This document shows positions 30,901 to 33,900 of a stretch of 64,000 bases of DNA, piece by piece. Origin of the DNA: Escherichia coli (GTDB lineage: Bacteria; Pseudomonadota; Gammaproteobacteria; Enterobacterales; Enterobacteriaceae); the NCBI RefSeq assembly GCF_045037415.1, contig NZ_CP173438.1; one strand, 5' to 3'. Each line of letters starts with the position of its first letter. Within the stretch, counting starts at the first letter, position 1. Position numbers: made by a program.

Positions 30901-33900
30901 TGTGTGGGTCTGTGGGGCTACCTGCTGTATCAGGGCGTGGTCGATCCGCTGGGCGGCGTTAAGAGCCTGTGGCCGCTGTTCGGTATTTCCAACCAGATGC
31001 TGGCAGCCGTAGCGCTGGTACTGGGCACCGTTGTGCTGATTAAGATGAAGCGCACCCAATACATCTGGGTAACTGTTGTTCCGGCTGTATGGCTGCTTAT
31101 CTGCACCACCTGGGCGCTGGGCCTGAAACTGTTCAGCACCAACCCGCAGATGGAAGGCTTCTTCTACATGGCAAGCCAGTACAAAGAGAAGATTGCTAAC
31201 GGTACTGACCTGACGGCGCAGCAGATTGCCAACATGAACCACATCGTTGTGAACAACTACACCAACGCGGGCCTGAGTATTCTGTTCCTGATTGTGGTGT
31301 ACAGCATCATCTTCTACGGTTTCAAAACGTGGCTTGCGGTGCGTAACAGCGACAAACGTACTGACAAAGAAACACCGTACGTTCCAATCCCGGAAGGCGG
31401 CGTGAAGATCTCTTCGCACCACTAACCGTGTTTAGCCCCGCTTCGGCGGGGCTTTGTTCTTATCAGAGTGAACTATGTTTGGTAACTTAGGACAGGCAAA
31501 AAAATATCTCGGCCAGGCGGCGAAGATGTTGATTGGCATTCCAGACTACGACAACTACGTCGAGCATATGAAGACCAACCATCCCGACAAGCCGTACATG
31601 AGCTATGAAGAATTCTTCCGCGAACGCCAGAATGCGCGCTACGGCGGCGATGGTAAAGGCGGTATGCGCTGTTGTTAATGGAGAGAGCATGAACCCGATT
31701 GCAGTTACCCTACTCACCGGTTTTTTAGGCGCAGGCAAAACCACCCTGCTGCGCCATATTCTTAACGAACAACACGGCTACAAGATTGCCGTGATTGAAA
31801 ACGAATTCGGCGAAGTCTCCGTTGATGATCAACTGATTGGCGACCGCGCCACGCAGATCAAAACGCTGACCAACGGCTGCATCTGCTGTTCGCGCTCCAA
31901 CGAGCTGGAAGACGCACTACTCGACCTGCTGGATAATCTCGACAAGGGCAATATTCAGTTCGACCGTCTGGTCATTGAATGCACCGGCATGGCCGATCCC
32001 GGCCCGATTATTCAGACCTTTTTCTCCCATGAGATTTTATGCCAGCGTTACCTGCTGGACGGCGTGATTGCGCTGGTGGATGCGGTACATGCCGATGAGC
32101 AGATGAACCAGTTCACCATCGCCCAGTCACAAGTGGGCTACGCCGACCGTATTCTGCTGACTAAAACCGACGTCGCAGGCGAAGCAGAAAAACTGCGTGA
32201 ACGCCTGGCGCGCATCAACGCCCGTGCACCGGTCTACACCGTCACCCACGGCGACATCGACCTGGGCCTGCTGTTCAACACCAACGGTTTTATGCTGGAA
32301 GAGAACGTCATCAGCACCAAACCGCGTTTCCACTTTATCGCGGATAAACAAAACGATATTTCGTCGATTGTGGTGGAACTGGATTACCCGGTAGATATCA
32401 GCGAAGTTTCCCGGGTGATGGAAAACCTGCTGCTGGAATCGGCGGATAAACTGCTGCGTTACAAAGGGATGCTGTGGATTGACGGCGAACCTAACCGCCT
32501 GCTGTTCCAGGGCGTCCAGCGCCTCTACAGCGCCGACTGGGACCGCCCGTGGGGCGATGAAAAACCGCATAGCACGATGGTGTTTATCGGGATTCAGTTG
32601 CCGGAGGAAGAGATTCGGGCGGCGTTTGCGGGGTTGAGGAAGTAATTATGGATGATGGCCGCCATGTGGCGGCCTGAATTATTTTTTGTTCTGATCGCGC
32701 AGCATCGCTTCACGTAAAATTGCGTTCAGGCGAGTTTGATAGCCTTTACCAGGTCGCTTCAGCCATTCCATCACATCAGCATCAATACGCACCGAAGCCT
32801 GGGTTTTCAATGGCCGATAAAACTTACCGCGTTCTGCGTTAGACCATTGCTCATCGCTGGAAGGCGGGATATCACTGTAATCAATATCTTCGTCGAATTT
32901 ATTCGCCAGTGCCTTCAGTTCGGCCTCATGCTGCACATCGAGTGTAGAGGGTGTCCCTCGTTTATGTTTAACCATGCTCATAGCGGCTCCTCTCTTTACG
33001 ATCTGCTTTTCGTGCACTGATGATTCGAATAATTTCATTTCCGCTTTCGAAACGGATGGTATGCGCAACCAGAATAACCACGATACCGTGAACCAGGCCG
33101 ATAGTCTGCCAGCGATACTCACCGTTTTCTATGCGATCTTGCTGTGACAAATGTTGTGGATCATCAAACACTAACACCGCATCTTCAAAGCGGATGCCAT
33201 GTTTCACCCGATTACTTTTGGCCTTGTTTGCATCCCATTCAAACTCCATTGGCATAGTTGCCATCCCTAATTGTATATACAAAAATGTATCTACAATTAT
33301 TCTGCAATTATAGCGTTGATGTTGGAAATAGCATCACGTTTTGGATAATCAACCATGAAATTGACAATGAGTAAGTTGGACTTGATTCATCCAATAGAAT
33401 TTCTCGCCTGACATGGCACACTAAACACCTCGCTGTCGTTAAGGGATTACCGTGAAAAACTATAAAGTTATTACCCCGCTTTTTCCTACCTATGCACAGG
33501 TTAAAGCTATGATGAAAGCCGTCTCAGGCTATTCCCTGAAAGCGGTACGCAATATGATTACCGCCATTCGCGATCAAACCGGTACGCCGCAAAAACCCGT
33601 TGACTGGTCGGAACCTGACCTGTGGATCAGCGAACGCTTAACGGGCGAAGATGCCGACATCGCCCGTCGTATTTGGGATACAGATAATCACATATTGAAC
33701 CCGCGCCACAGCTACGGCTGCTACTTATTCCTCAACTATCCCCAGTTTGAGCTGATGGAAAGCACGCCAGATGATACCTGGCAGCCCACCTCGCGCGGGC
33801 AAAAATTCCTGCAAGATGACGAAAAAACGCTGCGTTCACTGGATGACCAGGAAGGCATTCTGCAACTGCTTGAGCTGCTGGCTGGCCGAGAAATGTCGCG

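Follow-up and report, generated by a model that had tools for sequence, protein, structure and literature searches.

We describe here brnTA, a small toxin-antitoxin (TA) operon on the minus strand of a 64,000-nucleotide (nt) stretch of Escherichia coli DNA (contig NZ_CP173438.1, assembly GCF_045037415.1), the whole of which is referred to below as the window. The locus is an ordinary BrnT/BrnA TA pair that has been annotated before; it lies where the E. coli restriction island borders on yjiA. Taken as a whole, it is highly probable (about 0.88) that it represents a canonical type II TA operon, arranged toxin first, with a predicted two-box operator to which BrnA would bind. The locus is already known: both genes have been named by RefSeq in E. 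coli ('BrnT family toxin' and 'BrnA antitoxin family protein'), a 2025 review catalogued brnAT, symE-symR and rpn as the three TA systems located in the island between yjiA and yjiN, and a complex of near-orthologues is available in the PDB (7VD7).

The brnT and brnA genes

The list of open reading frames (ORFs) and a direct reading of the minus strand both agreed with the first-pass annotation, which had described two overlapping minus-strand genes with the toxin upstream; apart from the toxin start codon treated below, its coordinates were correct. The toxin ORF ends with a TAA stop codon at 32968–32970, and the antitoxin ORF runs from an ATG at 32981 to a stop codon at 32679–32681. The end of brnT and the beginning of brnA overlap by 14 nt (32968–32981, minus strand), an arrangement that is the same in the RefSeq record of E. 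coli Nissle 1917 and would permit translational coupling. The assignment to the BrnT/BrnA family was borne out by the hidden Markov model searches that had been proposed as a check, in which the toxin matched PF04365 (BrnT/DUF497, E=7.9e-25) over model positions 1–77 of 77, and the antitoxin matched PF14384 (BrnA/DUF4415, E=3.1e-17) over positions 1–68 of 68. In addition, the toxin matched PHROG 4399, annotated as 'ribonuclease toxin' (E=5.7e-23), and the chain 7VD7_A of the PDB (94 residues aligned, about 85% identity, E=6e-53), and phage-borne relatives of both BrnT and BrnA were present in PHROGs. For comparison, 80 loci of other species encoding BrnT relatives were used, with the 110 nt upstream of each being examined. 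The locus has the make-up by which a type II TA operon is recognized, namely two small, adjacent, co-oriented and coupled genes with a partner conserved across genomes; 66 of the 80 loci had a BrnA homologue immediately 3′ of brnT.

Three in-frame ATG codons, at 33264, 33255 and 33249, were found in the toxin ORF. The first of these, proposed as the start in the first-pass annotation, adds three codons that are not conserved, and the start is most likely 33255 instead, because 1) brnT is 288 nt long in RefSeq, which places its start at 33255, 2) nearly all of the 120 homologues listed are 95 amino acids (aa) long and begin with MPMEF, corresponding to 33255 in the window, 3) the ATG equivalent to 33264 is missing in the orthologues of Citrobacter, Klebsiella and Raoultella, and 4) a Shine-Dalgarno-like AGGGA identified by direct reading (33264–33268, minus strand) is situated 8 nt before the ATG at 33255, while abutting 33264. 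An AGGG/AGGA-type site was retained in the brnT orthologues. It was also noticed that a small predicted RNA stem, UGGCA-ACUA-UGCCA (33249–33263, minus strand), encloses the probable start codon at 33255.

With this start, brnT (32968–33255, minus strand) encodes a 95-aa protein of the BrnT/DUF497 family which, judging from its family, would be a ribonuclease (RNase) toxin. According to a review, residues Asp6, Glu7, Lys9, Arg41 and Glu78 matter for the RNase activity of Brucella BrnT (Heaton et al. 2012, summarised in PMC5086665 and PMC10714953). Four of these five are kept, D6, K9, R41 and E78 corresponding to D8, K11, R48 and E88, respectively, and K18 and H19 are conserved too. In an alignment of 41 BrnT homologues, K18, F23, R48, G53, S80, R82 and E88 were invariant. 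By analogy, BrnT is expected to be toxic in E. coli.

The antitoxin gene brnA (32679–32981, minus strand) encodes a protein of 100 aa, in which Pfam, RefSeq, the chain 7VD7_B and modelling point to a toxin-binding segment (residues ~14–57) and a C-terminal ribbon-helix-helix (RHH) domain (residues ~58–100). An AGGAG is present at 32987–32991, 5 nt ahead of the brnA ATG; a 147-aa GTG-started extension of the ORF was treated as an artefact of the ORF caller. The antitoxin fragment 7VD7_B aligned with BrnA residues 14–57, and this fragment was the only match in a profile search of BrnA against the PDB sequences, no solved chain matching the DNA-binding domain by sequence. The AlphaFold model of the full-length BrnA monomer was poor (pLDDT 70, pTM 0.28), and a fold search with it found nothing. 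Because RHH domains fold only as dimers, a construct of two copies of residues 56–100 joined by a flexible linker was modelled, and the same fusion was made for 24 homologues. The fused BrnA model had a pTM of 0.74 and contained the order beta-alpha-alpha twice (E4-12/H13-20/H26-44, repeated). Its best Foldseek matches (prob 1.0, TM ~0.6) were F-plasmid relaxosome chains of 105–120 residues, which we take to be TraY, a protein in which tandem RHH domains occur naturally in one chain, and VirC2 was next. The RHH antitoxin of the first-pass annotation was thereby recovered in the model, in which the fused C-terminal domains form an RHH dimer and match tandem RHH proteins of the PDB; this supports the prediction that the C-terminus of BrnA is an RHH domain for dimerisation and DNA binding. 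In the literature, BrnA is described as having a C-terminal RHH and as controlling brnTA transcription.

Candidate operator upstream of brnT

Direct reading confirmed the position of a perfect palindrome, TTGTATATACAA, at 33271–33282, between a TATAAT hexamer and the toxin start. This sequence, with the core TGTATATACA at 33272–33281, is designated here box 2, or the proximal operator box. A second, distal box (box 1, TTGTAGATACAT, 33285–33296, with the core TGTAGATACA at 33286–33295), which the first-pass annotation had missed, was found as part of inverted repeat I1; the two boxes are 14 bp apart and together form a 32-bp inverted repeat. The perfection of the palindrome is by itself no argument for an operator, as the window contains 15 perfect 12-bp palindromes versus 19.8 ± 4.2 expected, and the chance of finding at least one in this AT-rich intergenic stretch is P ~0.07. 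Since its frequency alone is within chance, the significance of the palindrome comes only from conservation across genomes, and it is this comparative evidence that supports the operator claim.

The strict motif TGTA-NN-TACA was present in 47/80 brnT loci, occurring 50 times in 8,000 upstream bases (100 nt per locus) versus twice in 503,443 flanking bases, an enrichment of about 1,500-fold. In the 64-kb window it occurred only at 33272 and 33286. The core TGTATATACA was invariant in 28 Enterobacterales loci, among them those of Xenorhabdus, Photorhabdus, Erwinia and Pantoea, whose flanks could not be aligned, whereas the Alpha- and Betaproteobacteria had TGTAGTTACA, TGTAGTAACA or TGTAATTACA at the equivalent position. 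Even the locus of a spirochaete metagenome-assembled genome (MAG), whose toxin was 41% identical, had the box TGTATATACA. A second box, with at least 6 of the 8 specified bases, was found at offset -14 in 33 of 53 loci, while any other offset was seen in at most four. The central bases of the box were clade-specific and tracked the first beta-strand of the BrnA DNA-binding domain, [QH][AT]SVRI being paired with TGTATATACA, QLTLRL with TGTAGTTACA, and STT[VI]R[VL] mostly with TGTAGTAACA.

A natural control was provided by four MAG loci in which brnTA is located inside a type I restriction-modification (RM) operon and has no promoter of its own: the box was absent, and the BrnA strand read ITNVSV versus xxxVRI, the conserved Arg being replaced. 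On these comparisons of sequence, the two conserved boxes most likely form the self-repressing operator of brnTA.

The leader that carries the two boxes could also be read at the RNA level: the boxes would pair with each other in the 5′ leader, and the resulting hairpin by the ribosome-binding site would control translation or mRNA stability, a reading that we regard as very unlikely. A hairpin of 13 bp is indeed predicted for the 58-nt leader (-16.4 kcal/mol, z=-3.95 versus shuffles); however, pairing over 28 sequences was 76.3% (shuffles, 73.9%) and the core showed no double changes, box 2 being invariant and the changes in box 1 uncompensated. Furthermore, each box is itself palindromic, which a hairpin does not need, and several loci have a single box only. 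In Mesorhizobium and at comparison locus L078, the box overlaps a -10 that is located 17 nt after a consensus-like -35 (TTGACG), so that part of the box would be untranscribed. The lack of covariation, the single-box loci and the -10 overlap in these two cases therefore favour a protein operator over an RNA hairpin.

Hardly any credence can be given to the palindrome being a chance AT-rich feature or a site for a host global regulator (e.g. LexA) unrelated to BrnA: 12-bp palindromes are indeed as frequent in the window as chance predicts, and the box superficially resembles an AT-rich SOS-box core with the SOS-regulated symE lying in the same island, but the box accompanies brnT across Enterobacterales, Alpha- and Betaproteobacteria and the spirochaete MAG, and a host-specific regulator would not explain a box that travels with brnT across such distant taxa. 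The LexA consensus is CTG-N10-CAG, a 16-bp palindrome, whereas the box is TGT-N4-ACA and neither CTG nor CAG occurs within 33265–33300. Judged by eye, the box was also rejected on spacing as a LexA or a CRP site.

Several observations weigh against the interpretation of brnTA as a canonical operon with a BrnA-bound operator. At the level of the proteins, neither BrnT nor BrnA matched any NCBIfam model, so that Pfam and RefSeq are the basis of the family names; Ala9 takes the place of Glu7 of Brucella BrnT; and no experiments on this E. coli locus were found in the literature searched. As for the promoter, the hexamer TATAAT claimed in the first-pass annotation is present at 33307–33312 (minus strand), and it is kept as TATAAT, TATACT or TATTAT at equal distance in Citrobacter, Klebsiella and Raoultella; however, direct reading revealed no recognisable -35 at a spacing of 16–18 nt, and a simple promoter scan gave zero minus-strand sites above threshold, TATAAT included. 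It is thus a -10-like element of a candidate brnTA promoter. Regarding the boxes, their correlation with the BrnA beta-strand is consistent with recognition by BrnA but is not independent evidence, because it follows phylogeny, and the spacing of 14 bp is not a whole helical turn. Finally, toxin-deleted alleles in about 220 E. coli genomes (see below) show that the toxin can be dispensed with.

Two other elements in this region were considered. An alternative promoter within the boxes, TTGTAG-N15-TACAAT, has a spacing that is not optimal. Upstream of the -10, a conserved block, AAAACGTGATGCTATTTCCAAC (33321–33342, minus strand), is shared by Escherichia, Citrobacter, Klebsiella and Raoultella and is not found in the Enterobacter or Xenorhabdus clades; it does not correspond to a -35, and readings of it as a LexA box or a suitably positioned CRP site were rejected by eye on spacing.

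If the two boxes are the operator of brnTA, the operon may be envisaged to work as follows. BrnT would be a small RelE-like ribonuclease that, as inferred from its family, arrests translation, and the synthesis of BrnA would be coupled translationally to that of brnT through the 14-nt overlap. BrnA would wrap BrnT with its central segment (~14–57), neutralising the toxin, and dimerise through its C-terminal RHH domain. The BrnA dimer, alone or as BrnA2-BrnT2, would most likely bind the boxes TGTAGATACA and TGTATATACA; since these are situated between the -10 and the ribosome-binding site, binding would shut off transcription of the operon. Upon a stop in the synthesis of BrnA, which is presumably labile, or upon its degradation, free BrnT would cleave RNA and growth would stop.

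Genomic context and possible role

The genes in this region are arranged in the order btsT, yjiX, yjiA, brnA, brnT, Mrr-like enzyme, hsdM, hsdS, hsdR, symE, yjiS, yjiR, rpn, mdtM and yjiN, and the region is the enteric immigration control region. The gene order agrees with the earlier placement of brnTA between yjiA and the restriction genes, the Mrr-like/type I block being located on the other side of the pair from yjiA. Between the convergent yjiA and brnA, a GC-rich hairpin, GGCCGCCATGTGGCGGCC (32657–32674), was identified by terminator scan and as inverted repeat I3. Its T-run is on the plus strand (yjiA side) and overlaps the last brnA codons, consistent with a terminator of yjiA, and it may also end the brnTA transcript. 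K-12/B-type genomes are without brnTA and their homology to the window stops at the yjiA stop codon, so the hairpin belongs to the brnTA haplotype.

Next to brnT, a gene at 33452–34618 (plus strand) encodes a 388-aa 'restriction endonuclease' that matched the PADLOC candidate family PDC-S02 over its entire length (E=7.7e-207); the match to Mrr-like type IV enzymes (mREase_IV) is in the C-terminal half of the protein, which is longer than the mrr of the E. coli B strain examined and different in orientation. The same island carries a second TA pair, of type I, with the SymR antisense RNA (Rfam RF01809, 83 bits) at 41097–41173 (minus strand) and symE at ~41168–41506 (plus strand), and a gene for an Rpn-family nuclease is located a few kb further. 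Over 39.5 kb, the window and E. coli Nissle 1917 were 99.9% identical; for about 1.25 kb near rsmC and the tRNA-Leu cluster (12691–13944), the identity to Nissle 1917 falls from 99.9% to 95.9%, pointing to a patch of recombination or to a difference between strains.

Among 5,426 complete E. coli genomes, brnA was present in 2,111 (39%), whereas the central 161 nt of brnT were matched in 1,889, with at least 80% covered in 1,780. About 220 of the 2,111 brnA-positive genomes (~10% of carriers) have the antitoxin without the toxin core. In two examples (comparison loci L084 and L087), a deletion of about 160 bp corresponding to 32987–33152 of the window removed BrnT codons ~35–88 and left the promoter, both boxes and brnA intact. 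In one strain (L085, 3080–4255), an orphan brnA without brnT is followed by a Fic-family gene, a DUF1524 fragment, IS4 and a DUF262 gene; this locus is a different island cargo. In many E. coli, an IS1-associated deletion has taken away a stretch that begins with the Mrr-like gene and ends shortly before mdtM, while brnTA and the 183 nt upstream of brnT are intact, an IS1 pseudogene abutting the position of 33438 in the window (L002, 6855–7552; L086, 3355–4051). Outside E. coli, a yjiA-adjacent brnTA was also found in E. albertii, several Citrobacter species, Pluralibacter and others.

The first-pass annotation had suggested that brnTA could stabilise the island or act in abortive infection, both of which are speculation. 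In the latter case, brnTA would be an anti-phage abortive-infection or back-up device working with the neighbouring restriction systems, BrnT being freed when phage shut-off or anti-restriction depletes BrnA. This appears improbable, even though brnTA lies inside the enteric immigration control region with a type I system and an Mrr-like type IV enzyme as neighbours, type I RM genes were found within 4 kb in 10/80 homologous loci, and relatives of BrnT and BrnA are borne by phages in PHROGs. In addition, in the four loci from uncultured-proteobacterium MAGs mentioned above (L048, 1578–6165; L041, L043 and L052), brnTA is located between hsdM and hsdS in the order hsdM (whose stop overlaps the brnT start), brnT, brnA, a 96-aa ORF and hsdS. 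However, these RM associations amount to no more than three or four contexts that are independent of each other, BrnT and BrnA gave zero matches to PADLOC defence models, no defence phenotype for BrnTA was reported in the papers found, and brnTA persists alone after deletion of the island while the toxin is lost in ~10% of carriers. A bolder form of the same idea, in which brnTA would be a recurrent RM partner (at the yjiA edge in Escherichia and Citrobacter, between hsdM and hsdS in unrelated MAGs) providing an abortive-infection back-up upon BrnA depletion, with the threshold set by the family-wide two-box TGTA-NN-TACA operator, is a little more doubtful still.

A selfish addictive module fits better than an island stabiliser, because brnTA outlives the island deletion and the toxin is frequently lost; the deletion itself, as a single event, proves little about the role. 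The most parsimonious role would be that of an addictive module that persists both vertically and horizontally, located where the immigration control region borders on yjiA. Beyond its correct annotation, the locus matters little. The present analysis makes two modest additions, namely 1) a defined candidate operator of two TGTA-NN-TACA boxes 14 bp apart, a motif common to the Brucella prototype, and 2) population data on carriage, toxin loss and survival past the island deletion, which are useful for asking whether chromosomal TA pairs lend stability to defence islands or are simply selfish elements.

Comparison with known systems

The pair resembles BrnT/BrnA of Brucella abortus (PDB 3U97) in its Pfam families, toxin-first bicistron, RNase residues D/K/R/E and antitoxin with a C-terminal RHH. 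In B. abortus, according to reviews (PMC5086665 and PMC10714953, summarising Heaton et al. 2012), BrnA and the BrnTA complex bind and repress the brnTA promoter. Examination of the 74 nt upstream of Brucella brnT revealed three boxes, TGTACGTACA, TGTATGTACG and TGTACATACG; no other site in the 3.2-kb locus matched 7 or more of the 8 bases, and variants of the CGTATACG type were found in the relatives from Shinella and Chelatococcus. Promoter boxes of the form TGTA-NN-TAC[A/G] are thus common to B. abortus and the locus described here. The two differ in that 1) the homology between the toxins is weak (E=3e-4 to 3U97), with Glu7 in Brucella and Ala here, 2) Brucella has three boxes, 22 and 38 bp apart, whereas there are two here, 14 bp apart, and 3) the Brucella genes abut with a 1-nt overlap, whereas the overlap is 14 nt here. 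The complex in 7VD7, deposited as 'toxin' and 'antitoxin', is effectively the orthologue of the present BrnT/BrnA, although its antitoxin fragment is without the C-terminal DNA-binding domain.

The symE/symR pair shares the island with brnTA but differs from it in being of type I, with an RNA antitoxin, in being SOS-induced and in being unrelated in sequence. RelBE and HigBA likewise have an RNase toxin of the RelE superfamily and an antitoxin that represses its own operon from tandem operator sites, as predicted here for BrnA; the toxin-first gene order is in addition common to HigBA and brnTA. The antitoxins are built differently, however: RelB has an N-terminal RHH and neutralises via its C-terminus, an arrangement that is reversed in BrnA, and HigA uses a helix-turn-helix domain where BrnA would use an RHH.

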